Assembly: GCA_002502785.1 (NCBI GenBank)
Contig: DAQG01000046.1
Coordinates: 4,018 to 68,017, forward strand
Length of the DNA: 64,000 nt
From: Methanothrix harundinacea
GTDB lineage: Archaea > Halobacteriota > Methanosarcinia > Methanotrichales > Methanotrichaceae
Direction: 5' to 3'
Positions 6,409-62,253 of this stretch are shown here, in pieces (position 1 is the first letter of the stretch; each line of letters opens with the position of its first letter). Both the position numbers and the translations under genes were made by a program. The notes below the pieces were generated by a model. That model was not told where the DNA came from, searched no databases, and worked only from the letters and a program-made list of their open reading frames with translations.

Positions 6409-7284
6409 ATGTTCAAGCTTGGAGAATATGACGAGGTCGAGGCCTCGGATATAGCAGCCTATCTCAAAGAGGCTGGCGTGAGAGTCGAACTGAAACCATC
6501 GATTTGCGCCTTCATGGAGAGCGCGGTCTACTTGGAGGGGAGGCTCAGCCAGCTCAAGGAACGGGTTGAAGATTTCGAGGTTTACGATCGATATATTGAA
6601 GCTTTGAAGACGGCCCTCGCCGAGGGCGCGGAGGCCGAGGACTTCGTAGATCGGTATCTATCGACTCTGGACCCGTCCTGGAATGAGAAGAAGGGCGAGA
6701 TGGCCGAGTTCTTGGAAGACGATTCGATTGGCACGGATGGGGGCGGCGACTCGCCCGAGGAGATGATGGAACAGGCAGCTGACCTTTTGGATATGCTCGA
6801 GGCGATCCAATTTATGGGATCTGCTATCGAACTCAATGAGATCGAGATCGAGGACGGTCCCAGAGGGTTGCTGGATGACGATCCGATCCTCAGGATCCTG
6901 GTAGATCCCGACGAATGCGACCCCGACGACGAGCTGATAAAGCCCATTCTTGCGGTCCGCCTAGATAAGCGGGTCGAAGTCCGACTGGACGAGATGACAA
7001 CACCTCTGGCCAAAGATGTGGACGACGAGTTCGCGGACGAGTATCCTGAAGAGTACTACATGATCTCTTCCATAGGCATGACGATGGAGAGGCTCCTCGA
7101 TCCGCCAGGAGATTCGAACAAAATCGATCTCGACGAGTTCAGAGAGACTCTCGTTTTCGAAGAGGATATGGTGGATTTCGTCATGATGGTCGACGGAACG
7201 GCCGTGGCCGAGGATATTGTCCGGGTTTTGAAGAAAGAAGGTGTGATCAAGATCAAGAACGATAAGATCACGTGGAAAAAATGA
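6409..7284 (+). CDS. Acidic hypothetical protein
   Basis: 291-aa ORF, very Asp/Glu-rich, with no recognisable family. It lies 19 nt upstream of the Isf-like gene on the same strand. Confidence 0.5.
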   Translation: MFKLGEYDEVEASDIAAYLKEAGVRVELKPSICAFMESAVYLEGRLSQLKERVEDFEVYDRYIEALKTALAEGAEAEDFVDRYLSTLDPSWNEKKGEMAEFLEDDSIGTDGGGDSPEEMMEQAADLLDMLEAIQFMGSAIELNEIEIEDGPRGLLDDDPILRILVDPDECDPDDELIKPILAVRLDKRVEVRLDEMTTPLAKDVDDEFADEYPEEYYMISSIGMTMERLLDPPGDSNKIDLDEFRETLVFEEDMVDFVMMVDGTAVAEDIVRVLKKEGVIKIKNDKITWKK

Positions 7285-7303
7285 GAAGCTGTTGGTTTGA
7301 TAT

Positions 7304-7837
7304 ATGAAGGTACTGGCTTTAATCGGCAGCCCCAGAAGAGGGGGAAACACCGAGCTTCTCGTCGACCAGATCCTCAGGGGATGCGGCTCCAGAGGCGACG
7401 GCACAGAGAAGCTTCGGCTCTACGATATCGGGATTGAGGCATGCATCGACTGCCGTCGATGCAAGAAAGGGGACTTCTCCTGCGCCCTCATGGACGGGAT
7501 GCAGGAGGTGTATCCGAAGCTCGAGGAGGCCGACCTTATCGTCTTTGGAACCCCGATATACTGGTACGGCCCCACAGGAAAGATGAAGCTATTCATCGAC
7601 AGGCTCCGGCCCTACATCGCCAGCGGGAAGCTGAGAGGAAAGGCGGGCGTAGTCGCGGCCCCCTCTGAGGAGGGTCCTGGATGCTGCGGGCCCCTGATGG
7701 AGATGTTCAGGATGTCCTTTGACTACCTGGGGATGGAGTTTGCGGGAAGCATCCTCGCCAGGGCGTATGAGAAGGGCGAAGTTGGGGAGGATGCTGAGGA
7801 GATGAATAGGGCCTACGAGCTGGGCAGATCTCTTTGA
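7304..7837 (+). CDS. Iron-sulfur flavoprotein-like / NADPH-dependent FMN reductase family
   Basis: Flavodoxin-like N-terminus MKVLALIGSPRRGGNTE and the compact cysteine motif CIDCRRCKKGDFSC (CX2CX2CX6C), as in Methanosarcina Isf. Also carries FGTPIYWYG. Confidence 0.7.
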   Translation: MKVLALIGSPRRGGNTELLVDQILRGCGSRGDGTEKLRLYDIGIEACIDCRRCKKGDFSCALMDGMQEVYPKLEEADLIVFGTPIYWYGPTGKMKLFIDRLRPYIASGKLRGKAGVVAAPSEEGPGCCGPLMEMFRMSFDYLGMEFAGSILARAYEKGEVGEDAEEMNRAYELGRSL

Positions 7838-24183: not shown

Positions 24184-24279
24184 CGCCGAGGGGGAGATTC
24201 GAACTCCCGCGACCCTTGCGAATCACAAGCTTTCAGTACAGAATTCCAGGCTTGCGCCTTACCACTAGACTACCTCGGC
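24184..24279 (-). tRNA. tRNA-Ser (anticodon GGA), class II with long variable arm and a ~12-nt insertion in the anticodon arm (intron)
   Basis: Hand fold: acceptor GCCGAGG/CCTCGGC, 3-bp D stem, anticodon stem CAAGC/GCTTG enclosing CTGGAA+TTCTGTACTGAA+A, variable arm GATTC-GCAA-GGGTC, T arm GGGAG-TTCGAAT-CTCCC and discriminator G. Confidence 0.7.
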
Positions 24280-39293: not shown

Positions 39294-40133
39294 TTAGCCC
39301 TCCAGTGATCGCATCAGGTTGACCTGGGAAAGGGTGGCGAAGATCGCCTCTTCAAGCCTTACCGTTTCGGTTCCCTGATGCGGTATGGTGTTAATCACGC
39401 AACATCCTTCCATCGTTTCGCTGCTCAAGAACGCATCAACGCCGCGTGCGGGCGAGCCGAAGACCACTTCCAGACCACGCTTTAGGCCTTGACGTATCGT
39501 CTGCCTCAGGAGGTCTGGGGTTGCTGGCGTGCCCTGTCTGGACGTGGCCACGACTAGGCTCTCTGTTGAGCGGACGTGCTCGTCCAGGTTCGGGATGACC
39601 TCGGTTTCGTAGCCCCAGTAGTGAGGTATCTCCGATCGGTCTACCGGCTCCGCGGCGAGGGGTTTCAGCGAAAAGACTCTGACGTTCAGGCGCTGCCCCG
39701 CCAAAAACCGCTTCGCGGTTTTGAGGGGCAATGGGCACTCAACACCTATGTCCACCCATGCGCCGTTGTCAGATCCCACTTCGTCGACTACTAAACCTAC
39801 TCTGAACTCGCCGACCTTGAGCGTTGAAACCTTTGAGCTTGTGGGATGATGAGCGGTGCGCAGCGGCGGCAGGATGCCAACGTACCTCAACGCTCTTTCC
39901 CTAGGAAAGAGCCTTTTTCGGAGGTACTGGGGCGTCTCTGCGTACTGCAGGACTCGGGATATGAACCTGGAGTCATCAAACTCCTCATCGCGATAGATGA
40001 CGATCCTGTCCACCCGAAATACCGCAGCTGCTCTTGCGATCTGGCCCACCTTGAGGGTGCGTATTCGCAGGTCCGCCGACTCCATTGTAGCGGAGGACGG
40101 AATCAAGATGGACGTCTCGCTGTCACCGATCAT
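39294..40133 (-). CDS. Putative SPOUT-superfamily RNA methyltransferase (DUF171 / Methyltrn_RNA_3-like)
   Basis: TSILIPSS......DLRIRTLKVGQIARAAAVFRVDRIVIY...YAETPQYLRK and the conserved position directly upstream of rpl3 in archaea. Confidence 0.6.
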   Translation of the reverse strand: MIGDSETSILIPSSATMESADLRIRTLKVGQIARAAAVFRVDRIVIYRDEEFDDSRFISRVLQYAETPQYLRKRLFPRERALRYVGILPPLRTAHHPTSSKVSTLKVGEFRVGLVVDEVGSDNGAWVDIGVECPLPLKTAKRFLAGQRLNVRVFSLKPLAAEPVDRSEIPHYWGYETEVIPNLDEHVRSTESLVVATSRQGTPATPDLLRQTIRQGLKRGLEVVFGSPARGVDAFLSSETMEGCCVINTIPHQGTETVRLEEAIFATLSQVNLMRSLEG

Positions 40134-51180: not shown

Positions 51181-51253
51181 GCCGCCATAACTCAGTTGGT
51201 AGAGTGTCTGGCTGTTAACCAGATCGTCACAGGTTCGAGCCCTGTTGGCGGCG
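51181..51253 (+). tRNA. tRNA-Asn (anticodon GTT)
   Basis: Acceptor GCCGCCA/TGGCGGC, anticodon stem TCTGG/CCAGA with loop CTGTTAA, and a T loop GGTTCGAGCC. Confidence 0.9.
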
Positions 51254-51272
51254 TCTAAAAAAAACGTTTCTT

Positions 51273-51347
51273 GGGCCTGTAGCTTAGTCCGGTTAGAGCG
51301 CTCGGCTCATAACCGAGTGGTCGCCGGTTCAAATCCGGCCAGGCCCA
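51273..51347 (+). tRNA. tRNA with CAT anticodon (elongator Met or Ile2; not initiator-like)
   Basis: Acceptor GGGCCTG/CAGGCCC (G1-C72, unlike the archaeal initiator A1-U72), anticodon stem CTCGG/CCGAG with loop CTCATAA. Confidence 0.85.
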
Positions 51348-51382
51348 TTTTCCCAAATAAACTCAAAAACTCGGAAGCTGGC

Positions 51383-54246: not shown

Positions 54247-55551
54247 GTGTCTGACAAAATAGACCTCTATAGTGACCGTGGCGTTCTTTTAAAGAGTGAC
54301 GTTGACCTGAGCGCCGTCAGCCCACTCAAGAACGCGGCGATGAAGAAACTGATCAACCTGACCAAGCGGACCGTTGCGGTCAACCTGGCAGGAATCGAGA
54401 ACGCGCTGAAGACCGGAAAGGTCGGCGGGCAGGGCAGGCAGATCAAGGGACGCGAGCTCAAGTACGACGTCACCGCCAACGCCGATGCTCTCGCCGCCAG
54501 CATCAAGAGTTTGCTCCAGGTCGATGAGGGTGACGACACCAACGTTAAGATACTGGGTGGAGGAAAGCAGCTTCTGGTTCAGGTCCCCACCGCCAGGGTC
54601 GACGTTGCATCCGAGTTCGTCGTCGGAATGACCGCCGCAGCCGCAGCTGCCACCGAGGCGATCATAGGGCAGTTCAACGCCAGCATGTACGACGCGCCCA
54701 TGGTCCACGCTGCAGTCTGGGGCCAGTACCCCCACACCGTTCCTATGTCCGGCGGAAACATCGCATCTGTTCTCAACATCCCCCAGAACGATGAGGGTCT
54801 CGGCTTCGCTCTCAGGAACGTCATGGCCAACCACCTTGCCGCCATCTGCAAGAGGAACGCCATGAACACCGCCGCTCTGTCATCCATCCTCGAGCAGATC
54901 GGAAACTTCGAGATGGGCAACGCCATAGGCATCTTCGAGAGGCACCAGTTGCTCGGCCTCGCCTACCAGGGCCTTAACGCCGACAACATGGTCTACGACC
55001 TCGTCAAGTCCAACGGCAAGACCGGAACCATCGGAACCGTCGTCCAGTCCACCGTTGAGAGGGCCCTTGAGGACGGAGTCATCAAGGCCGGCGAGAAGCT
55101 CCCCTCCGGATTCGTCATGTACGAGGCAAACGACGTCTCCAAGTGGAACGCTTACTGTGCAGCAGGCACTCTCGCAGCCACCATGGTCAACTGCGGTGCC
55201 CTGAGAGGCGCTCAGGCAGTATCCTCAACCCTGCTTTACTTCAACGACGTCATCGAGAAAGAGACCGCTCTGCCAGGCTGCGACTGGGGCAAGGTCATGG
55301 GAACCGCCGTCGGTTTCTCCTTCTTCAGCCACTCCATCTACGGCGGCGGCGGACCCGGTGTCTTCAACGGCAACCACGTCGTGACGAGGCACTCCAGAGG
55401 ATTCGCTATCCCCTGCGTGGCCGCAGCAGTTGCTCTTGACGCCGGTACCCAGATGTTCACCCCGGAGATGACTTCCGGACTGGTCGGAGCCGTTTACGGA
55501 GAGATCAAGGAGTTCCGCGAGCCTATCATCTCAGTTGCGGAGGCTGTATAG
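54247..55551 (+). CDS. mcrB: Methyl-coenzyme M reductase beta subunit
   Basis: GTG start after [17 protein letters not shown]...V.L..VSPL.N and FYGYGGGPG-type C-terminal motifs ([13 protein letters not shown]) fit McrB. Length is 434 aa. Confidence 0.95.
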
Positions 55552-55566
55552 ATAGGTTGGGTATGC

Positions 55567-56061
55567 ATGGTCACTAAATCAGACACGGAACCGGTCCAGA
55601 TTGAGATCTTCCCTCGAAGGTTTCTCAACCCGGACACTGCTCAGCGCCTCCTCGACGAGATCTACAGGTCAGAGGGGGTCCTCAGGATAATGATCCAGGG
55701 GCCAAACCTTCCGAGGGAGGTACCCTATGGTCCAGCGAAGGGCACTCCCATCGAGGAGCATAAGAATTTGCTCCTTACGCTGGGGGATCAAGCTCTTGAG
55801 TTGAAGGTGAAAGTTGGCAGGATCGGGCTGGAGCTGGAGAGCGAAGAACATATTGAAGGCGTAAGAGCTGCGTGTGAGCGAACGTTGCCCTTTTCCTTCA
55901 GTATCAAAAAACGGAAGCTCTTTCACAACAAGCTGACCGTCTCGGATTACGCGAAGTACGGAAGCAAGGTGGAGGACGAGAGAATCCTTGGACTGGTCGA
56001 TCCGAAGGCCAAAAAGGAAAAAAACCTGGCCATGTTGTCTGATAGCAGAGGTGACTCGTAA
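55567..56061 (+). CDS. mcrD: Methyl-coenzyme M reductase operon protein D
   Basis: IEIFPRRFLNPDTAQRLLDEIY..EGV.RI.I.GP.LP..VPYGPAKG and VKVGRI.LEL fit McrD. Confidence 0.9.
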   Translation: MVTKSDTEPVQIEIFPRRFLNPDTAQRLLDEIYRSEGVLRIMIQGPNLPREVPYGPAKGTPIEEHKNLLLTLGDQALELKVKVGRIGLELESEEHIEGVRAACERTLPFSFSIKKRKLFHNKLTVSDYAKYGSKVEDERILGLVDPKAKKEKNLAMLSDSRGDS

Positions 56062-56085
56062 CATTTTCACAAGGAGGTTTAGGAT

Positions 56086-56853
56086 ATGGCATACAAACCC
56101 CAATTTTATCCCGGCACTACGTCTGTTGGCGTGAACAGGCGCAAGCACATGTCCGGCGATCTGGAGAAGCTGAGAGATATCTCCGATGCCGACGTCGTAA
56201 CTATAATGGGCCACAGGGCCCCCGGTGCAGATTACCCCAGCACCCACCCACCCCTGGCCGAGATGGGCGAGCCCGACTGTCCCATAAGGCAGCTTGTAGA
56301 GCCCACCCCCGGCGCAGCTGCTGGAGACCGAATCAGGTACTCCCAGTTCGCTGACTCCATGTACAACGCTCCCGCCATTCCATACTGGAGAAGCTACTGG
56401 GGAGCAATCAACTGCAGAGGCGCAGACCCAGGAACTCTCTCAGGCCGACAGATCATCGAGGCCAGAGAGAGAGACATAGAGCAGTACACTAAGGTCCAGA
56501 TGGACTCCGAGATGACCGACGTAGCTCTCTGTTCCATGAGAGGCTGCACTGTTCACGGCCACTCCCTGAGGCTTCAGGAGGACGGCATGATGTTCGACAT
56601 GCTGGCCAGGACAGAGATGGGCGCTGACGGCAACGTATACTACGTCAAGGACCAGGTCGGTATCCCCCTCGACAGGAAAGTCAACGTTGGAAAGGGCATG
56701 AGCGAGGCGGAGGTCGCCAAGAGGACCACCATCTTCAGGCACGACAACATACCTTTCGGCGGGGCACAGGGCGCAAGGAAGTTCGATGAGGGTCTGATCG
56801 CTCTGCACCACATGTGGGAGCGCAGAAGCAAGTGGGGCTACAGGCCAGAGTAA
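56086..56853 (+). CDS. mcrG: Methyl-coenzyme M reductase gamma subunit
   Basis: MAYKPQFYPGTTSVGVNRRKHM...GHRAPG..YPSTHPPL...VHGHSLRLQEDG are canonical McrG motifs. Length is 255 aa. Confidence 0.95.
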   Translation: MAYKPQFYPGTTSVGVNRRKHMSGDLEKLRDISDADVVTIMGHRAPGADYPSTHPPLAEMGEPDCPIRQLVEPTPGAAAGDRIRYSQFADSMYNAPAIPYWRSYWGAINCRGADPGTLSGRQIIEARERDIEQYTKVQMDSEMTDVALCSMRGCTVHGHSLRLQEDGMMFDMLARTEMGADGNVYYVKDQVGIPLDRKVNVGKGMSEAEVAKRTTIFRHDNIPFGGAQGARKFDEGLIALHHMWERRSKWGYRPE

Positions 56854-56869
56854 ATGGTGGTGAGATAAG

Positions 56870-58549
56870 ATGGGAAAAATTCATTCTAAGAAGCTTTTCG
56901 TAAAGGCTCTCAACAAGAAGTTCGGAAAGGAATTGGACCTTTCCGGAAAGACGACCACTTATGAGAGAAAGGGTCCCACGCAGAATGCCCGTAAGGTAGA
57001 GTTCATGGAGGCCTCCAAGAAGCTGGAAGGCAAGAGAGGTATCTCCTTCTACAACCCGTACGTCCACGCTGGCGGTGTTCCGCTGGGTCAGAGGCAGCTC
57101 GTACCCTACAAGCTCTCCACCACCGAGTATGTCGTAGAGGGTGACGACCTTCACTTCGTAAACAACCCCGCCATGCAGCAGATGTGGGACGACATCAGAA
57201 GGACCATCGTGGTCGGTCTGGACATGACCCACGAAGTGCTGGAGAAGAGGCTGGGCAAAGAAGTCACTCCCGAGACGATCAACAACTATCTCGAGATTCT
57301 GAACCACGCCATGCCAGGCGCAGCCGTGGTCCAGGAGCACATGGTCGAGACCCACCCCGGTCTTGTCGACGACTGTAACGTCAGGATCTTCACTGGCGAC
57401 GACGACCTCGCAGACGAGATCGATGACCAGTACGTCATCGACATCAACGCGCTCTTCCCCGCCGACCAGGCTGAGGAGATCAAGGCCGCCATGGGCAAGA
57501 CCACCTGGCAGGCTATCCACATCCCGACCATCGTCTCGAGGACTTGTGACGGCGGTACCACCTCCAGGTGGAGCGCCATGCAGTTGTCCATGACCTTCAT
57601 CGACGCCTACAACATGTGCGCCGGTGAGGCCGCTGTGGCTGACCTCGCCTTCGCCGCAAAGCACGCTGCCGTCATCCAGATGGCCGACATGCTTCCCGCG
57701 AGAAGGGCCAGAGGCCCCAACGAGCCCGGTGGAGTTAGCTTCGGCTTCCTCTCTGACATGGTCCAGACTTCCAGGACCAAGCCCGACGACCCGCCACAGG
57801 TCTCCCTGAACGTGGTCGCTGCCGGAACTATGCTCTACGACCAGATCTGGCTCGGGAGCTACATGTCCGGTGGTGTCGGGTTCACCCAGTACGCCACTGC
57901 AGCCTACACCAACGACATCCTGGACGACTACTCCTACTATGGCTGCGACTACGCCATAGACAAGTACGGCGACTGGTGCAGCGCGCCTGTCGACCTGGAG
58001 ACCGCCAAGGACATCGCCACCGAGACGACCCTCTACGGCATAGAGCAGTACGAGGCCTTCCCGACCGTTCTCGAGGACCACTTCGGTGGGTCCCAGAGGG
58101 CTTCCGTCCTGGCCGCCGCTTCCGGTATCTCCTCTGCCTGCGCCACCGGAAACAGCCAGATCGGTTTGGCTGGCTGGTATTGCAGCATGCTGGTGCACAA
58201 GGAGGCCTGGGGAAGACTGGGCTTCTTCGGATACGACCTGCAGGACCAGTGCGGTCCGACCAACGTCTTCAGCTACCAGGGCGACGAGGGCAGCCCCGTC
58301 GAGCTGAGAGGCCCCAACTATCCGAACTACGCGATGAACGTCGGTCACCAGGGCGAGTATGCAGGCATCTCCTGCGCAGCTCACGCTGCCCGCAAGGACG
58401 CCTACACTCTCAACCCCCTGATCAAGGTGACCTTCGCGAACCCGGCGCTGATCTTCGACTTCGCCGACGTCAGGAAGGAGTTCGGAAAGGGCGGTGCCAG
58501 AGAGTTCCGCGCGGCCGGCGAGAGATCCTTGGTCATGCCCGCAGTGTAG
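56870..58549 (+). CDS. mcrA: Methyl-coenzyme M reductase alpha subunit
   Basis: [29 protein letters not shown] and [15 protein letters not shown] are canonical McrA active-site and PTM segments. Length is 559 aa. Confidence 0.97.
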
Positions 58550-58583
58550 GCGTTTCGCCTACACCCTTTTTCCATTTATTTTT
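58544..58583 (+). terminator. mcr operon terminator: 9-bp perfect hairpin spanning the mcrA stop codon, followed by T-runs
   Basis: GTGTAGGCG-TTT-CGCCTACAC (58544-58564) is followed by CCTTTTTCCATTTATTTTT. A second small hairpin (CCGAC...GTCGG) plus TTTTT follows at ~58584-58607. Confidence 0.6.
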
Positions 58584-58751: not shown

Positions 58752-59969
58752 TCATACGCCCAGGCCGTTTATCTCCTCGATCAGGTCCGTGAAGGCCTCG
58801 ACCTCCACCTCCATCACCTCTTCAGGCGTCATGCTGATGCTCATCTCACCGTCGACGGTTAACCGGTCTGGGCCTCTCCTCACGAGCCTTGCGACGCCGT
58901 CTCTTGAGAGCGCTTTTCTGATGTCGGAGTCGCAGGCCATCGCCCTTCCCGGCAGGATCACCGTCTCCTTCACCTCGGATAGGTCGAGGTTGATCAGGTC
59001 CTGGATGGTTATCAGGCAGCCTATGTCTTTGTTGACCGGGACGACGTTCACCTGGTCGCTGAGCTCTTCAAATATGGCCGAGAGGAGGGGGTGGGCGACG
59101 GAGCTGGTGATGAGGGTCGCCCCCTTCTGAACTGCTGGAAGTCTTGCGATCTGATCTTTGTGGTGCGCCAGGGCGAAGGGGGATTTTGTTACGGGGTCCC
59201 ATAGGGGGGTTCCAGCCACCCTGAAGGAGTACCTCTCGTTCGTCTCGGTGACGATATCTTTGAACTCCTCCACCGAATGGGGTACTACGCCGGGGATGAT
59301 CGGCTCGTTTCCGAGGATTAGGCCCTGCTCTCTCTCGTTTGCAAACCTCATCAGGATCAGGTTTTTGACCCCCATCTCTTCGAGGTCCTGGCAGGTCCGG
59401 TCGAGCTCTGGACCGTCGTTGACGCCCGGTATCAGCACGGAGGCGGCGTAGACGTCGCAGCTTTCGGCGAAGGTCCGAAGGTTTGCAAGAGCCGCCTCAG
59501 GGTGACGGTCGTTCATGTACTTTCCGCGAAGCTCGGGATCTGTGGAGAAGACGGTGAAGGAGACCTCCTTCACACCGGCATCGATCAGATCCTCGGCCTC
59601 ATTTCCCTTGGTGAATCCCTTGCCGCTGGTGTAACCGAGATGGATCGGGACGGAACCCTGGCCCACAATGCGGGCGAGGGGCAGAAGCTGGGGGTAGCAG
59701 CTGAGGTCGCCCCCGCCGCTGATGGTCACCTTGTCGGGCTTCTTGCCGAAGGCGGCCCCGGCCACCTCCATCGCCACCGTCTGCATCGGTTTGAAGCCGG
59801 GATAGCCCTCCACGATCGCCCGGCTGCAGTAGTCGCAGCCCTTCTGGAAAGGAAGACAGTGCTTGCATCCCAAAGGTTTGATCACCTTTACGCCCTTGAA
59901 GTAGCAGTAGCTGCAAAACCCCTTACAGTCGTGGCCCGGTCGACCTCCAACGTCCGCCAGTATCTCCAT
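58752..59969 (-). CDS. mmp10: Methanogenesis marker protein 10 (radical SAM McrA arginine C-methyltransferase)
   Basis: MEILADVGGRPGHDCKGFCSYCYFKGVK..KPLGCKHCLPFQKGCDYC...SGGGDLSCYP...HLGYTSGKGF...RRGPDRLTVDGEMSI is near-colinear with Methanosarcina Mmp10 as I remember it. Its position just after mcrA is typical. Confidence 0.9.
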   Translation of the reverse strand: MEILADVGGRPGHDCKGFCSYCYFKGVKVIKPLGCKHCLPFQKGCDYCSRAIVEGYPGFKPMQTVAMEVAGAAFGKKPDKVTISGGGDLSCYPQLLPLARIVGQGSVPIHLGYTSGKGFTKGNEAEDLIDAGVKEVSFTVFSTDPELRGKYMNDRHPEAALANLRTFAESCDVYAASVLIPGVNDGPELDRTCQDLEEMGVKNLILMRFANEREQGLILGNEPIIPGVVPHSVEEFKDIVTETNERYSFRVAGTPLWDPVTKSPFALAHHKDQIARLPAVQKGATLITSSVAHPLLSAIFEELSDQVNVVPVNKDIGCLITIQDLINLDLSEVKETVILPGRAMACDSDIRKALSRDGVARLVRRGPDRLTVDGEMSISMTPEEVMEVEVEAFTDLIEEINGLGV

Positions 59970-60071
59970 CCAGCAACTCTCCGGTCTACCATCGATCCTG
60001 AAGTAAAAAGCCTTTGCGGGCTGATAGGTGCCGGAAAACTATTAGTACGTTGAAGAAGCTCAAAAAAGAGT

Positions 60072-61235
60072 GTGTCTCAAAAAAGGCCTTTTCACGTGAT
60101 GATAATCCCCACTCTAGGCTGTCCATCCAGCTGCAGTTATTGCTGGAGTTCCGATGAAAAGTCCCCCGTAATGACCATCGAAACCGTAAAAGATGTGGTT
60201 GAGTGGCTTAAAAATTTCAGGGACGATCCCGTCACCTTCACCTTCCACGGCGGAGAGCCACTTCTTGCAGGCGCTGACTTTTACCGGGAGACGTTGTCTT
60301 TGCTGACGGAGGGACTCTGTCACATGAAAATTGCCTTTGCCCTCCAGACGAACCTCTGGAAGATGACCCCGGAGCTGGCCACGGTTTTGGCGGAGTACAA
60401 GATCCCCATCGGCTCAAGCTTGGACGGCCCAAAGGAGCTCAACGATCTGCAGAGGAGCGAGGGGTATTTCGATAAGATGATGGCCGGTTATGAGATCGCC
60501 AAGGCTCACGGCCTCTCCGTCCAGTTCATATGCACCTTCACCTCCTACTCTGTGGATTTCAAGGAGGATATCTTTGACTTCTTCCTTGATAATGGCCTAA
60601 CCCTGAAGCTTCATCCAGCCCTCCCCTCCTTGAAGAGCGACGACCCTGATAAGTGGGCTCTTGCTCCCGAAAAGTATGGGGAGCTCCTCGTCTATCTTTT
60701 GGACAAATATCTCGAAAATATGGATGATATCGTGATCAGGAACATCAACGACCTCTGTAGATGCGTCTTCACCAGCCGGGGGACCGTCTGCACCTACGTT
60801 GACTGCATGGAGGACACCTTTGCGGTGGGGCCCGACGGGAGCATTTACCCTTGCTACCGGTTCGTGGGGATGCCGGAGTGGGTCATGGGCAACGTCCGCG
60901 ACCATCCAAGCCAGGAGGTCCTCGCCGAATCCGAGGCCGGAAAGCGGATGCACCAGTTCAAGGAGCGGGTGGACGGTGAATGCAAGGGATGCAAGCACAT
61001 CAGATACTGTCGAGGCGGGTGTCCCTACAACGCCATAGCGCCGACGGGCGGCGAGATAAAGGGCGTCGATCCCCACTGCGTCGCCTACAAGAGGATCTTC
61101 GACGAGATCTCCGACCGGTTCAACAAGGAGATGTTCGGGTCCTTTGGCATGGGTATGACACCCCCACAACCTGTTCCTCCTGAGGGTGCAAAGCCCGGGA
61201 TAATGGCGTTAATTCAGAAGATCATATCGAGCTAG
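60072..61235 (+). CDS. Radical SAM protein with C-terminal SPASM domain (anaerobic sulfatase-maturase-like), function unknown
   Basis: CPSSCSYC (CX3CX2C) at residues ~17-24 and GGEPLL. The SPASM-type cysteines are CTYVDC...YPCYRF...CKGCKHIRYCRGGCPYN...DPHCVAYK. It is divergent from mmp10 with a ~100-nt gap. Confidence 0.8.
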   Translation: MSQKRPFHVMIIPTLGCPSSCSYCWSSDEKSPVMTIETVKDVVEWLKNFRDDPVTFTFHGGEPLLAGADFYRETLSLLTEGLCHMKIAFALQTNLWKMTPELATVLAEYKIPIGSSLDGPKELNDLQRSEGYFDKMMAGYEIAKAHGLSVQFICTFTSYSVDFKEDIFDFFLDNGLTLKLHPALPSLKSDDPDKWALAPEKYGELLVYLLDKYLENMDDIVIRNINDLCRCVFTSRGTVCTYVDCMEDTFAVGPDGSIYPCYRFVGMPEWVMGNVRDHPSQEVLAESEAGKRMHQFKERVDGECKGCKHIRYCRGGCPYNAIAPTGGEIKGVDPHCVAYKRIFDEISDRFNKEMFGSFGMGMTPPQPVPPEGAKPGIMALIQKIISS

Positions 61236-61296: not shown

Positions 61297-62253
61297 TCAT
61301 AGGATCGTCAGTATAGTGATGATCTCAAGGAAGTATATCGCCACCAGCATGCTCCCCTCAAACCTCGTTATTCTATTTCCCAGGACCATGAACCCCAAAA
61401 GGAGGCTGATCAAAACGACCACGGGAAGGGTGGTGGAGACGAAGGCTTCGTTCACGGCCACGTCCTGAACCAGGGAGGAGACTCCGAGGATTATCAGGGC
61501 GTTGAAGGTGTTGGCGCCCAGGACGTCTCCCATGGCGATGTCGCCCCGGCCGTTCTTGGCGGCGACGATGGCGGTGCTGATCTCAGGAAGGGAGGTTCCC
61601 ACCGCGAGAAGAATTACCGCCACCACCGCTTCGGAGAGGCCCAGGGTAGAGGAGATCGTCCTTATCGCCTCGATCATGTAGTTGGCGCCGACCGAGAGCA
61701 TAGCGATCCCGGCCAGGAATTGGGCGAGGTACCTGGGCCTGAACTTCTCGCTTCCCTTCGACTCGCTCTTTCGATGCTCTGAGATCTCGTGACGGATGAA
61801 GGAGAGGTAGATCGCGATCAGGAAGATCCCCTCTATCCAGGTAATTTTGAAGTCCAGGAAGACCACGAAGACCGCCAGCATCGAAGCCAGGAGGAATGAT
61901 AGGTCCGTCTCCAGGATCTTCCTATCGATGTATATCCCGTAGAACATCGCCGCTGCGCCCAGGGCGAGGCCGGTGTTCGCCAGGATCGACCCCAGGACGT
62001 TTCCGGCGGCTATCTCGGGCCTGCCTCCATCGACCAGCATCGCCACAAGAGAGGTCGAGAACTCCGGAAGGGCCGTGCCGAAGGCGACCACCGTCGCCCC
62101 TATAACGAACTCTGATACGCCGAGGACCTTGGCAAAGTGGACGGCACTATCGGTGATCGACTTCGCCCCGTAGTAGAGGGCGACCAGGCTTACGGCGAAT
62201 ATCAAAAACTCCAGCAATAAACCAGCCTCTAAAGCCTCCTCGTTGGTCCTCAT
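61297..62253 (-). CDS. Ca2+/cation antiporter (CaCA, YrbG-type Na+/Ca2+ exchanger)
   Basis: Two alpha-repeats (GATVVAFGTALPEFSTS and LLAVGTSLPEISTA) and ~10 TM segments. Confidence 0.85.
   Translation of the reverse strand: MRTNEEALEAGLLLEFLIFAVSLVALYYGAKSITDSAVHFAKVLGVSEFVIGATVVAFGTALPEFSTSLVAMLVDGGRPEIAAGNVLGSILANTGLALGAAAMFYGIYIDRKILETDLSFLLASMLAVFVVFLDFKITWIEGIFLIAIYLSFIRHEISEHRKSESKGSEKFRPRYLAQFLAGIAMLSVGANYMIEAIRTISSTLGLSEAVVAVILLAVGTSLPEISTAIVAAKNGRGDIAMGDVLGANTFNALIILGVSSLVQDVAVNEAFVSTTLPVVVLISLLLGFMVLGNRITRFEGSMLVAIYFLEIITILTIL

Follow-up and report, generated by a model that had tools for sequence, protein, structure and literature searches.

A TIGR04083 radical-SAM/SPASM protein encoded beside mmp10 and mcrA in Methanothrix harundinacea as a candidate MCR maturation enzyme

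MCR is the enzyme through which nearly all biological methane is formed or consumed, and the modifications in its active site have been known since 1997. Methyl-Arg, thio-Gly, methyl-Cys and methyl-Gln have assigned enzymes (Mmp10, YcaO/TfuA, McmA and MgmA, respectively); for didehydroaspartate and hydroxytryptophan, reviews up to 2026 name no enzyme. Two of the assigned enzymes, Mmp10 (TIGR03278) and MgmA/QCMT (TIGR04014), are encoded beside mcr and beside one another and, according to the literature, act on McrA peptides prior to assembly; both are cobalamin-dependent C-methyltransferases without a SPASM domain. Guilt by association led earlier to Mmp10 and to the Gln methyltransferase (PMC5943407, PMC9401015). 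A third relevant system is the anaerobic sulfatase maturase anSMEcpe (PDB 4K36-4K39; TIGR03942). anSME enzymes act on a protein side chain through hydrogen abstraction followed by one-electron oxidation, which is the formal chemistry required to convert Asp to didehydro-Asp. Here we describe a radical-SAM gene (rSAM) that joins the mcr-mmp10-mgmA cluster, and whose product is the strongest candidate at hand for an MCR modification that lacks an assigned enzyme, a proposal strongly supported by genomic context.

The locus and its MCR neighbours

The window, a 64-kb stretch of M. harundinacea DNA, contains the following features.

54247..58549, plus strand: mcrB-mcrD-mcrG-mcrA operon for the presumed protein substrate (ORFs; Pfam MCR_alpha_N, MCR_alpha and MCR_D; orthologous blocks in other loci)
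58244..58246, plus strand: codon for McrA Asp459, the proposed target residue, equivalent to the didehydroaspartate position in characterised MCRs
58544..58564, plus strand: terminator-like hairpin in the sequence, 9-bp stem followed by a T-run, overlapping the mcrA stop codon
58752..59969, minus strand: mmp10, McrA arginine C5-methyltransferase, radical SAM (TIGR03278, 587 bits, cut-off 350)
59970..60071, no strand: divergent mmp10/rSAM intergenic region, 102 nt between start codons, presumed from the layout to be a bidirectional promoter region
60072..61235, plus strand: rSAM gene (ORF, GTG start, 387 aa; TIGR04083, Mhun_1560 family, methanogen/ANME clade; candidate MCR maturase)
60789..61079, plus strand: SPASM region with eight cysteines (C240, C245, C261, C304, C307, C313, C317 and C336), from sequence and alignments
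61297..62253, minus strand: Na_Ca_ex/CaCA antiporter, the next gene after rSAM and convergent with it

The first-pass annotation of this DNA described the open reading frame at 60072-61235 with its CPSSCSYC motif and C-terminal cysteines correctly, as it did the convergent CaCA antiporter that follows, and the spacer to mmp10 that it put at about 100 nt measures 102 nt. However, it is the 3′ end of mmp10, not its start, that lies 202 nt beyond mcrA. The gene is thus tail-to-tail with mcrBDGA and convergent with mcrA, and the predicted terminator-like hairpin probably sets the mcr transcript apart from that of mmp10. mcrC is absent from the window operon (54247-58549). In agreement with the earlier reading, no sulfatase or precursor-like gene flanks rSAM: a Cys-rich precursor-like ORF is not found among the ORFs of at least 20 aa around rSAM, and the sulfatase signature (C/S-x-P-x-R...TG) has no match anywhere in the 64 kb. 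A database copy of the same protein (P0001) is 378 aa long and starts at Met10; the longer GTG start is favoured because the PFH[VI]M sequence upstream of Met10 is conserved in orthologs.

We surveyed linkage in 80 species-level loci (the best genome hits) together with reference genomes, counting any MCR gene within 10 kb. Such a gene is present in about 25 of the 80 loci (about a third), in all three clades of the rSAM gene tree, which match taxonomy; by a rough estimate, if a 3-Mb genome has about four such loci, a random gene would be close to one of them in about 3% of cases. The remaining loci, about two thirds, have no MCR gene within the flanking DNA available, among them all those of Methanosarcina and Methanoperedens whose 10-kb flanks are complete, which counts against an MCR role.

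The arrangements vary. In Methanolinea (L049), mcrA lies 168 nt upstream of the rSAM gene. Two Methanolobus genomes (L087 and L089) have it about 485 nt upstream with a 65-aa ORF in between, and mmp10, on the minus strand, ahead of mcrBDCGA. Besides the window, mmp10 and rSAM are neighbours and divergent in the Methanocrinis locus L003, where they are head-to-head across a 119-nt spacer and mgmA precedes mmp10 (mgmA-mmp10 divergent from rSAM); in four other Methanotrichaceae (L006, L018, L023 and L025) the two genes are co-directional and 16-105 nt apart. mgmA itself adjoins rSAM in L019 and in L067, a Methanomicrobiaceae genome with the order mcrBDCGA-mgmA-rSAM-mtrE. Together, mcr, mmp10, mgmA and the gene for component A2 recur near rSAM across the three clades, and neither a sulfatase nor a RiPP precursor is found beside an ortholog in more than 80 loci. 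This recurrent linkage, and the co-directional pairs in Methanotrichaceae, support the first-pass proposal of a candidate MCR maturation enzyme co-regulated with mmp10.

The protein family, its clusters and its conservation

rSAM matches NCBIfam TIGR04083 (rSAM_pep_methan, Mhun_1560 family) over the entire profile (positions 1-376 of 376) at 695 bits against a cut-off of 300, and its orthologs score 619-703 bits. The protein had been called uncharacterised, which holds for function but not for the family: TIGR04083 is already catalogued, as a hypothetical equivalog with no function attached and the name 'peptide-modifying radical SAM enzyme'. We found no paper on this family. Both the radical-SAM and the SPASM domain, for which an HMM check had been proposed, score above cut-off (PF04055, 58 bits against 29.5; PF13186, 34.8 against 21.5; TIGR04085, 65.8 against 27), and the Pfam scan returned no further domain, including no cobalamin-binding domain.

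The N-terminal motif C17-x3-C21-x2-C24 (CPSSCSYC; nt 60120-60143, plus strand) aligns with C15/C19/C22 of anSMEcpe. Cysteines of such a CxxxCxxC motif ligate the SAM-cleaving [4Fe-4S] cluster. The motif begins just 16 residues from the N-terminus, too few to hold a peptide-recognition (RRE) domain ahead of it; the AlphaFold model (pLDDT 86), whose beta/alpha core matches radical-SAM structures, has no additional N-terminal domain. SPASM domains are defined by a seven-Cys motif (Cx9-15Gx4C ... Cx2Cx5Cx3C ... C) and two auxiliary [4Fe-4S] clusters. In rSAM the spacing is C245-x10-G256-x4-C261 ... C304-x2-C307-x5-C313-x3-C317 ... C336, with C240 in addition. These eight cysteines are invariant in both family alignments (A1 and A2) and match eight anSMEcpe cysteines one-to-one, so that all 11 cluster cysteines are conserved; their number is predicted to suffice for full ligation of two auxiliary clusters, to which they are presumably allotted as in published anSME work. 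The two auxiliary clusters and the lack of a cobalamin-binding domain lead us to predict that rSAM oxidises rather than methylates, in contrast to Mmp10 and MgmA.

By both sequence (E = 3e-35, full length) and fold (TM 0.79-0.84), the closest solved structure is anSMEcpe. The two proteins are of the same length class, residues 6-345 aligning to 3-357, and share a radical-SAM cluster, two fully Cys-ligated auxiliary clusters (11 Cys aligned) and the lack of an N-terminal RRE. The earlier description as anSME-like therefore stands for the fold and the cluster ligands, but not for membership. rSAM scores only 171 bits against the TIGR03942 cut-off of 349 and 132 against 441 for PRK13758, and of the residues that we take to be catalytic in anSMEcpe, with their numbering likewise presumed, Asp277 is replaced by Tyr262, a position that varies within the family (Y, Q, N or P), and Tyr24 is aligned with a gap. 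rSAM is 27% identical to anSMEcpe and differs from it further in having an invariant Arg263, beside Cys261 and one residue past the position aligned with Asp277, and a conserved C-terminal helix (377-386), which in the model follows a disordered linker. The gene neighbours differ too, being MCR genes and no sulfatase; the sulfatase signature is also without a match inside ORFs longer than 300 aa in loci L001-L080.

In the best 80 genome hits, orthologs are 67-86% identical to rSAM. Among the matches listed, their hosts are Methanotrichaceae, Methanosarcinaceae, ANME-2, Methanoperedens and Methanomicrobiales; like Mmp10 and MgmA, rSAM is thus found, among archaea, just in MCR-bearing lineages, although it is less widely distributed than Mmp10. 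Between the window and Methanolobus, identity is 70% for rSAM, 66% for McrA and for McrB, 62% for McrG, 58% for Mmp10 and 47% for McrD; between the window and Methanomicrobiales it is 71-73% for rSAM and 65-66% for McrA. Judged by these identities, rSAM is as conserved as McrA.

The TIGR04083 model also picks up bacterial proteins from organisms without MCR (Chloroflexota, Rhodothermales and others), which counts against a role in the MCR system. They score 320-455 bits, are 38-46% identical and share the Cys pattern and the invariant PCxRF motif. However, most are tandem double radical-SAM/SPASM fusions of about 800 aa, three of the four contexts examined are beside HEAT-repeat proteins and the fourth beside SET-domain genes, with mcr in none, and the methanogen clade, at 620-700 bits, forms a separate long-stemmed branch.

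Alternative roles

The function of rSAM is probably tied to the MCR system, the best reading being that of a predicted protein-directed MCR maturase. A job elsewhere in that system, either in reductive activation or assembly or in the modification of another methanogenesis protein (Mtr or A2), is unlikely, yet it is the strongest of the alternatives. rSAM may, for example, mature or modify a component of the A2/McrC/Mmp activation complex or its iron-sulfur cofactors. A true component A2 (TIGR03269, 849 bits) adjoins the rSAM gene, which lies directly downstream, in Methanoregulaceae (L071, Methanoregula) and is nearby in L024, L058 and L069, whereas the adjoining ATPase in ANME-2 MAGs resembles A2 but misses the cut-off (327 bits, cut-off 517). 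The distance to nifB is 3.4-4.6 kb in Methanothrix loci and 1.6 kb in a single locus of Methanoperedens; Mrp/ApbC-type, MinD-ferredoxin, NifX-like and DUF134 genes occur near rSAM in L007, L019, L049 and L058; and in four Methanomicrobiales loci mtrE follows rSAM at a distance of 280-820 nt. A2, Mmp genes and nifB have been placed in MCR-activation loci (PMC12176620), and the A2, nifB and FeS-assembly neighbours (Mrp, MinD-ferredoxin, DUF134) point equally to MCR activation. However, the activation machinery is universal in methanogens, whereas rSAM is found, among the matches listed, only in Methanosarcinales and Methanomicrobiales, as would fit a variable modification. Furthermore, its tightest and most varied partners are mcrA and the genes of the McrA-modifying radical-SAM enzymes, mmp10 and mgmA, and a radical-SAM step for the clusters of the activation complex is already supplied by NifB.

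It is improbable that rSAM merely hitch-hikes in a 'methanogenesis island' and serves some housekeeping purpose unrelated to MCR, such as cofactor or lipid chemistry. In the Methanomicrobiales loci examined the mcr operon is next to the mtr operon, so any gene between them appears linked, and the Methanosarcina neighbours of rSAM are unrelated to MCR (a pyrophosphatase-like gene, a TRM5/TYW2-type methyltransferase and a 123-aa unknown). Against this, the partner varies (mcrA, mmp10, mgmA, A2) and the MCR theme is constant, adjacency is often within 200 nt and co-directional, and linkage also occurs where mcr and mtr are not adjacent, as in Methanotrichaceae and Methanolobus.

More improbable still is a RiPP maturase whose precursor is encoded elsewhere, with proximity to mcr being incidental. 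The NCBIfam name, the bacterial relatives without MCR linkage and the next-best HMMs, the RiPP maturases DynA (178 bits), PapB (103) and AmcB (98), would agree with it, although all three scores are far under their cut-offs. SPASM RiPP maturases (CteB 5WHY, SuiB, PqqE, DynA and PapB) share the Radical-SAM and SPASM domains and the fold (TM 0.53-0.70), but in the alignments CteB and SuiB extend about 100 residues further at the N-terminus, an extension that we take from the literature to be an RRE, and they presumably have an adjacent precursor gene; rSAM has neither. No conserved small ORF adjoins rSAM in the 80 loci once overlaps of larger genes are set aside. RiPP maturases are usually patchy and fast-evolving, whereas rSAM is vertically inherited, about 70% identical across orders and conserved at least at the level of McrA, and chance would hardly place it beside four different MCR genes, repeatedly and in varying arrangements.

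Finally, formylglycine formation in a sulfatase by an anSME, to which the nearest solved structure and the label 'arylsulfatase regulatory protein' on the ortholog in M. barkeri 3 and UniRef records would point, is already effectively refuted by the sub-threshold TIGR03942 score, the unconserved Asp277 and Tyr24 and the missing sulfatase signature in the window and the 80 loci.

Didehydroaspartate as the candidate product

Returning to an MCR maturase, there is about an even chance that rSAM acts on McrA. The window McrA retains, as stated earlier, the 11-residue segment with the positions of thioGly, didehydroAsp and S-methylCys (residues 452-462, nt 58223-58255, including G454, D459 and C461). 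Through the common GYDLQDQCG motif, Asp459 corresponds to Asp470 of M. acetivorans (PMC7058361), and by this equivalence is proposed to be the modified residue. The enzyme for didehydroaspartate is still unassigned (PMC7581889, PMC8070964, PMC11951088), and M. barkeri and M. acetivorans McrA have just two orphan modifications, N1-methylhistidine and didehydroaspartate (PMC9081873). As rSAM is predicted to be a non-methylating radical-SAM oxidoreductase, didehydroaspartate is the only Methanosarcina orphan that fits it. Its formation from the McrA Asp is the most likely reaction, which we put forward tentatively.

Of the lineages in which didehydroaspartate is reported, those covered here, M. 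barkeri, ANME-2c and Methanoperedens (ANME-2d), all have the rSAM gene, which fits the assignment. The modification is absent from M. wolfeii, Methermicoccus shengliensis, Methanococcales and ANME-1, and present in Methanothermobacter marburgensis MCR. None of these, M. marburgensis included, is among the best 80 genome hits, nor is any Methanobacteriales ortholog found there or among named proteins in the best 120 of each protein search; the single 'Methanobacteriaceae' label belongs to a permafrost MAG that groups with Methanosarcinales in the tree.

In the mechanism that we propose, rSAM would be a three-cluster radical-SAM/SPASM oxidoreductase whose substrate is a protein segment that has folded out, not a peptide guided by a leader, and would belong to the set of MCR maturation enzymes in Methanosarcinales (including Methanotrichaceae and ANME-2) and Methanomicrobiales. 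SAM would be reductively cleaved by the N-terminal [4Fe-4S] cluster, and the 5′-deoxyadenosyl radical would act on Asp459, in the GYDLQDQCG loop of McrA, before assembly, removing a hydrogen at C-beta (or C-alpha). The two auxiliary clusters, both fully ligated by Cys, would then relay one electron away from the substrate radical, as they do in anSME, and the invariant Arg263 is a plausible ligand for the substrate carboxylate. More cautiously still, the methanogen family might be the missing MCR didehydroaspartate synthase, an anSME-type electron relay re-tooled with an Arg in the active-site loop.

If so, rSAM would be the first radical-SAM enzyme known to desaturate an aspartate C-alpha-C-beta bond inside a protein, and a new reaction type for radical-SAM/SPASM chemistry. 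The MCRs of Methanothrix, Methanolobus and Methanomicrobiales should then carry didehydroaspartate, and M. marburgensis should have a cryptic ortholog or another route to it. An ortholog in genetically tractable Methanosarcina reduces the didehydroaspartate question to one knockout and one mass spectrum, and the full set of MCR maturation enzymes matters for heterologous production of active MCR to be used in methane bioconversion.

The locus downstream of mcrA

The gene order and the radical-SAM/SPASM cysteine motifs described for 58752-61235 in the first-pass annotation are reproduced by the ORFs and by Pfam, with the following layout.

54247-55551, plus strand: mcrB (ORF)
55567-56061, plus strand: mcrD (ORF, confirmed by Pfam)
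56086-56853, plus strand: mcrG (ORF)
56870-58549, plus strand: mcrA (ORF, confirmed by Pfam)
58544-58564: 9-bp hairpin followed by a T-run, overlapping the mcrA stop codon
58752-59969, minus strand: mmp10 (TIGR03278, 587 bits against a cut-off of 350)
59970-60071: 102-nt spacer between the start codons of mmp10 and the radical-SAM (rSAM) gene
60072-61235, plus strand: rSAM gene (GTG start, 387 aa, Pfam Radical_SAM and SPASM)
61297-62253, minus strand: Na+/Ca2+ exchanger-family (CaCA) antiporter, the next gene after the rSAM gene

The distance of about 200 nt originally given between mcrA and mmp10 is accurate (202 nt), and the orientation needs correcting: since mmp10 lies on the minus strand, it is tail-to-tail with mcrA, its 3′ end facing the operon. 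The divergence of mmp10 and the rSAM gene across about 100 nt and the CaCA antiporter as next gene both hold, and an SMC ATPase gene lies beyond the antiporter. The best genome matches to the rSAM protein, with up to 86% identity, have this CaCA-SMC synteny in common with the window, whose host belongs to the Methanotrichaceae (Methanothrix/Methanocrinis). In the 102-nt spacer, a promoter scan gave no match, the scan being sigma-70 specific and the host an archaeon, and no clear TATA box was seen by eye. In agreement with the earlier description, there is no sulfatase signature in the window and no precursor-peptide-like ORF around the rSAM gene among window ORFs of at least 20 aa. By tblastn, the 64-kb window contains no homologs of mcrC, atwA (component A2), mgmA or nifB, the sole atwA match being a generic ABC ATPase with 29% identity. 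The 11-residue McrA segment of interest spans residues 452-462. The mcr operon (54247-58549) reads mcrB-D-G-A without mcrC, which lies between mcrD and mcrG in Methanolobus and in the Methanomicrobiaceae locus L067.

The database copy of the rSAM protein, P0001, has 378 aa and begins at Met10 (ATG at 60099). The residues K-R-P-F-H-V upstream of Met10 are kept in orthologs of other genera, and the GTG at 60072 is therefore more likely to be the true start than the Met10 ATG.

Family, fold and predicted clusters of the rSAM protein

The profile search proposed in the first-pass annotation assigns the rSAM protein to TIGR04083 (NCBIfam rSAM_pep_methan; the "Mhun_1560 family" in JGI naming), with 695 bits over the whole profile against a cut-off of 300. 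The runner-up models are all far under their cut-offs (DynA, 178/450; anSME TIGR03942, 171/349; PapB, 103/340 bits). TIGR04083 is classed as a "hypothetical equivalog," a defined family without attached function or substrate; "uncharacterised" was thus apt for the function, and the protein is not nameless. We found no paper on the TIGR04083/Mhun_1560 family, nor any linking SPASM to MCR, and as far as the literature searched shows, the connection between TIGR04083 and MCR has no precedent. The gene is an ordinary ortholog in a catalogued family and a distinct variant within the radical-SAM/SPASM enzymes.

The radical-SAM motif is C17-x3-C21-x2-C24 and, as it starts already at residue 17, there is no N-terminal RRE domain. 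Eight further cysteines (C240, C245, C261, C304, C307, C313, C317 and C336) are in SPASM arrangement. The nearest solved structure by sequence is the anaerobic sulfatase-maturating enzyme of Clostridium perfringens, anSMEcpe (4K36-4K39; E = 3e-35, end-to-end alignment), and the AlphaFold model (pLDDT 86.3, pTM 0.85) matches it with a TM of 0.79-0.84 at 27% identity, well above CteB (sactisynthase, 0.68), ChlB, TigE, SuiB and PqqE. The 3 radical-SAM and 8 SPASM-region cysteines each align with anSMEcpe cysteines, which we take to be the ligands of its three clusters, and the rSAM protein is therefore expected to carry three fully Cys-ligated [4Fe-4S] clusters. This would be the anSME-type arrangement, where auxiliary clusters take the electron from the substrate radical.

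The label "anSME-like" thus fits the fold and the aligned cysteines, but not family membership. The anSME HMM score is about half of its cut-off, and both presumed catalytic residues of anSMEcpe, the base Asp277 and Tyr24, are missing: Asp277 aligns with Tyr262, a position that is Y, Q, N or P across the family, and Tyr24 aligns with a gap. With no sulfatase signature in the window either, we rejected an anSME identity or function. Arg263, directly after position 262, is invariant in both alignments. The tail of the protein (61104-61235, residues 345-387) comprises a low-confidence linker (358-372) and, at its end, an amphipathic helix, KPGIMALIQKIISS, that is conserved throughout the archaeal clade and takes an altered form, GLLRxGxLLSIMRG, in bacterial relatives. 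Unlike this protein, anSME has no such C-terminal helix, which may be a docking element.

Orthologs and their gene neighbourhoods

A species-level genome scan gave 80 loci whose products are 67-86% identical to the rSAM protein. Their hosts are Methanotrichaceae, Methanosarcina (including an M. barkeri MAG) and other Methanosarcinaceae; ANME-2, ANME-2c and Ca. Methanoperedens; and, within Methanomicrobiales, Methanoregula, Methanolinea, Methanoculleus, Methanosphaerula, Methanospirillaceae and Methanomicrobiaceae. Further hosts known from named proteins are M. barkeri 3, Methanolobus, Methanomethylovorans and Ca. Methanomarinus. None of the best 80 genome hits comes from Methanothermobacter, Methermicoccus, Methanococcales or ANME-1, and L050, labelled "Methanobacteriaceae," clusters with Methanosarcinales. 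In the neighbour-joining tree, Methanomicrobiales, Methanotrichaceae and the other Methanosarcinales form three clades, parted from the outgroup by a long stem; these taxonomy-matching clades and the stem argue for vertical descent of the gene.

At the 50% clustering level, no protein falls between the archaeal clade and relatives of at most 46% identity, of which the nameable ones come from bacteria (Chloroflexota, Rhodothermales). Tandem double radical-SAM/SPASM fusions of about 800 aa make up most of the top-scoring bacterial relatives. As bacterial relatives also exceed the TIGR04083 cut-off, the HMM family is wider than the methanogen clade, and our statements on linkage and function cover the archaeal clade only. 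Of four gene contexts of bacterial relatives that were examined, three, on unrelated contigs, place the relative directly beside a large HEAT-repeat protein (L081, 2512-6468; L083, 6001-12318; L085, 1344-5827), and this radical-SAM/HEAT-repeat pairing is possibly another protein-substrate system.

For the neighbourhood survey, ORFs from all loci were extracted and clustered, and cluster representatives were scored against NCBIfam. An mcr operon lies within 10 kb of the rSAM gene in seven Methanotrichaceae loci (L004, L007, L009, L012, L013, L015 and L016), four Methanomicrobiales loci (L049, L024, L067 and L078), one MAG clustering with ANME-2c (L059) and two complete Methanolobus genomes (L087 and L089). 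In L049 (Methanolinea), the rSAM gene starts 168 nt past mcrA on the same strand. In Methanolobus, a minus-strand mmp10 is followed by mcrBDCGA, a 65-aa ORF and the rSAM gene, which lies about 485 nt after mcrA. A divergent mmp10 adjoins the rSAM gene in the window and, at 119 nt, in L003; mmp10 is co-directional, 16-105 nt upstream, in L006, L018, L023 (Mmp10 565 bits to TIGR03278) and L025, a spacing and orientation suggesting a single transcript in these four. Divergent at 286 nt in L019 and co-directional at 153 nt in L067, mgmA, which encodes the McrA glutamine C-methyltransferase (TIGR04014, 637-663 bits), directly neighbours the rSAM gene; in L003, one gene separates the two. L067 carries on one strand mcrB-D-C-G-A, mgmA, the rSAM gene, a 109-aa ORF and mtrE-D-C (mtrE cluster identity checked on the L024 member, 378 bits). 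In four Methanoregulaceae loci, a same-strand component A2 gene precedes the rSAM gene by 215-1659 nt (TIGR03269, 849 bits for L071), and L078 has a partial copy farther away.

In total, at least one of mcr, mmp10, mgmA and true A2 falls within the available DNA at about 25 of the 80 loci, many contigs being short. By our own rough yardstick, four such loci per 3-Mb genome would put a random gene within 10 kb of one in about 3% of cases. The count carries less weight than the fact that four different MCR genes each occur somewhere as an immediate neighbour, in varied orientations and across all three clades. No neighbour is universal across the surveyed loci, and it speaks against the link that every locus of Methanosarcina or Methanoperedens whose flanks are complete shows unrelated neighbours. 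The link of the rSAM gene to MCR, which the first-pass annotation had proposed to look for among orthologs, is thus backed by comparative genomics.

The serious rival to McrA modification is that the enzyme serves MCR activation. Frequent neighbours include A2, nifB (TIGR01290, 367 bits), a Mrp/ApbC-type carrier, MinD-ferredoxin ATPases, a NifX-like gene and DUF134, and A2, Mmp proteins and NifB-made clusters have been tied to the activation complex (PMC12176620). However, the activation machinery is universal, while the rSAM gene is unseen outside Methanosarcinales and Methanomicrobiales, and its closest partners, mmp10 and mgmA, both encode McrA-modifying radical-SAM enzymes. Hitch-hiking in a methanogenesis island would account for the Methanomicrobiales loci in which the gene sits between mcr and mtr but leaves the Methanotrichaceae, Methanolobus and L019-type pairings unexplained, and we consider it unlikely. 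That the protein is a RiPP maturase with an unlinked precursor is more improbable still, nothing beyond the family name speaking for it.

For the TIGR04083 family, a Cys-rich TIGR04165-type partner peptide would be expected. Such a flanking precursor is absent around the rSAM gene, and no small ORF, Cys-rich or otherwise, is conserved beside it over the 80 loci. A conserved Cys/His-rich 92-aa ORF of Methanoregula (…CACGETHEHHEEGKSH…GDSCCCGSG…HRCGHGPRCQ; L058 971-1252, L071 6579-6857, L078 2973-3251) was rejected as precursor, lying 3-6 kb away in three loci only and having no NCBIfam match. It sits just upstream of a 100-aa ORF, DUF134 and atwA, and might encode a small metal-binding protein belonging to the A2/DUF134 cluster. 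The Methanolobus 65-aa ORF (MDSNELANLTLEAFKEDYDPESEIKMFDMRGKK…; L087 9766-9963, L089 9751-9948) has no Cys and no Pfam match and was not seen in other lineages.

Several further arrangements were observed. In three ANME-2-type MAGs, a double ABC ATPase gene (L040 35-1354, L045 2131-3843, L047 2496-4208) lies 166-181 nt upstream of the rSAM gene; scoring 327 bits against a cut-off of 517, it is only A2-like and was left out of the A2 count, and at less than 35% identity to Methanoregula A2 it may be an A2 paralogue. Methanothrix soehngenii-type loci (L007, L009, L010, L012, L013, L015, L016, L021 and L041) share a fixed block reaching back some 6 kb from the rSAM gene: nifB (minus strand; missing in L016), a 100-aa ORF, a PHP phosphatase, a 126-aa unknown, hflX, UPF0280/PRK04334, ending 68 nt before the rSAM gene, and the rSAM gene itself. 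In most of them, mcrAGDB follows 1-9 kb past the block on the opposite strand. In L019, L049 and L058, the rSAM gene directly adjoins a gene for a Mrp/ApbC-type FeS carrier, after which L049 has a NifX-like gene and a pair of MinD-type ATPase genes with ferredoxin inserts; the MinD-type pair is likewise present in L019, and L007 has NifX-like and MinD-type genes without Mrp. These look like an FeS-cofactor assembly set co-travelling with MCR-linked genes. In L004 (Ca. Methanocrinis alkalitolerans), an N-terminal 264-aa mgmA piece (7034-7828) between mcrA/DUF134 and mmp10 overlaps the mmp10 3′ end and looks like a decayed mgmA; L003 has an intact mgmA-mmp10 pair, and the window has no mgmA at that position.

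A candidate role in McrA modification

Between the window and Methanolobus, the rSAM protein is 70% identical, compared with 66% for McrA, 66% for McrB, 62% for McrG, 58% for Mmp10 and 47% for McrD; against the Methanomicrobiales loci L024 and L067, the values are 71-73% for the rSAM protein and 65-66% for McrA. This McrA-level conservation fits recognition of a near-invariant macromolecular surface by the rSAM protein. To our knowledge, RiPP maturases are not usually conserved to such a degree.

Among McrA modifications, 5-methyl-Arg (Mmp10), thio-Gly (YcaO/TfuA), S-methyl-Cys (McmA) and 2-methyl-Gln (MgmA/QCMT) have assigned enzymes, while N1-methyl-His, didehydro-Asp and hydroxy-Trp had none up to the 2025-2026 reviews. 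Didehydro-Asp has been reported for MCR I and II of M. marburgensis and for M. barkeri, M. acetivorans, ANME-2c and ANME-2d; M. wolfeii, M. kandleri, M. formicicus, M. thermolithotrophicus, Methermicoccus shengliensis, ANME-1 and Ca. Ethanoperedens are reported to lack it. The rSAM gene is present in all three didehydro-Asp-bearing lineages checked (M. barkeri, ANME-2c and Methanoperedens). Methanosarcina McrA has only two orphan modifications, N1-methyl-His and didehydro-Asp (PMC9081873), and its MCR lacks hydroxy-Trp. N-methylation to N1-methyl-His is not expected of a SPASM oxidoreductase without a methyl-transfer cofactor. Since Methanosarcina has the gene, didehydro-Asp is nearly the sole known option for any modification of mature McrA by the enzyme.

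By analogy, didehydro-Asp formation would match anSME-type chemistry. The rSAM enzyme would abstract a hydrogen from the McrA Asp, the substrate radical would undergo one-electron oxidation via the auxiliary clusters, and subsequent proton loss would give didehydro-Asp. We speculate that the invariant Arg263, in the loop bearing the anSME catalytic base, might hold the Asp carboxylate. Together, these observations make a function tied to the MCR system probable; that the enzyme acts on McrA itself, as first proposed, has about an even chance, and that it makes didehydro-Asp is a reasoned inference put forward tentatively, at somewhat below an even chance. Were the clade absent from M. marburgensis, another route to didehydro-Asp would operate there, weakening the case. 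The didehydro-Asp enzyme question, open since 2016, becomes directly testable in M. acetivorans.

Three further features were found elsewhere in the window. Rfam calls a 96-nt tRNA (51 bits) at 24184-24279 on the minus strand that is absent from the ARAGORN output and is probably an intron-containing archaeal tRNA. An L4-Archaeoglobi ribosomal-protein leader match (39679-39772, minus strand; 58 bits, gathering score 34.5) sits within a long series of short minus-strand ORFs at about 28-40 kb, which we take to be a ribosomal-protein cluster. Immediately beyond the 3′ end of a topoisomerase gene is a tRNA-Asn/tRNA-Met pair (51181-51348).
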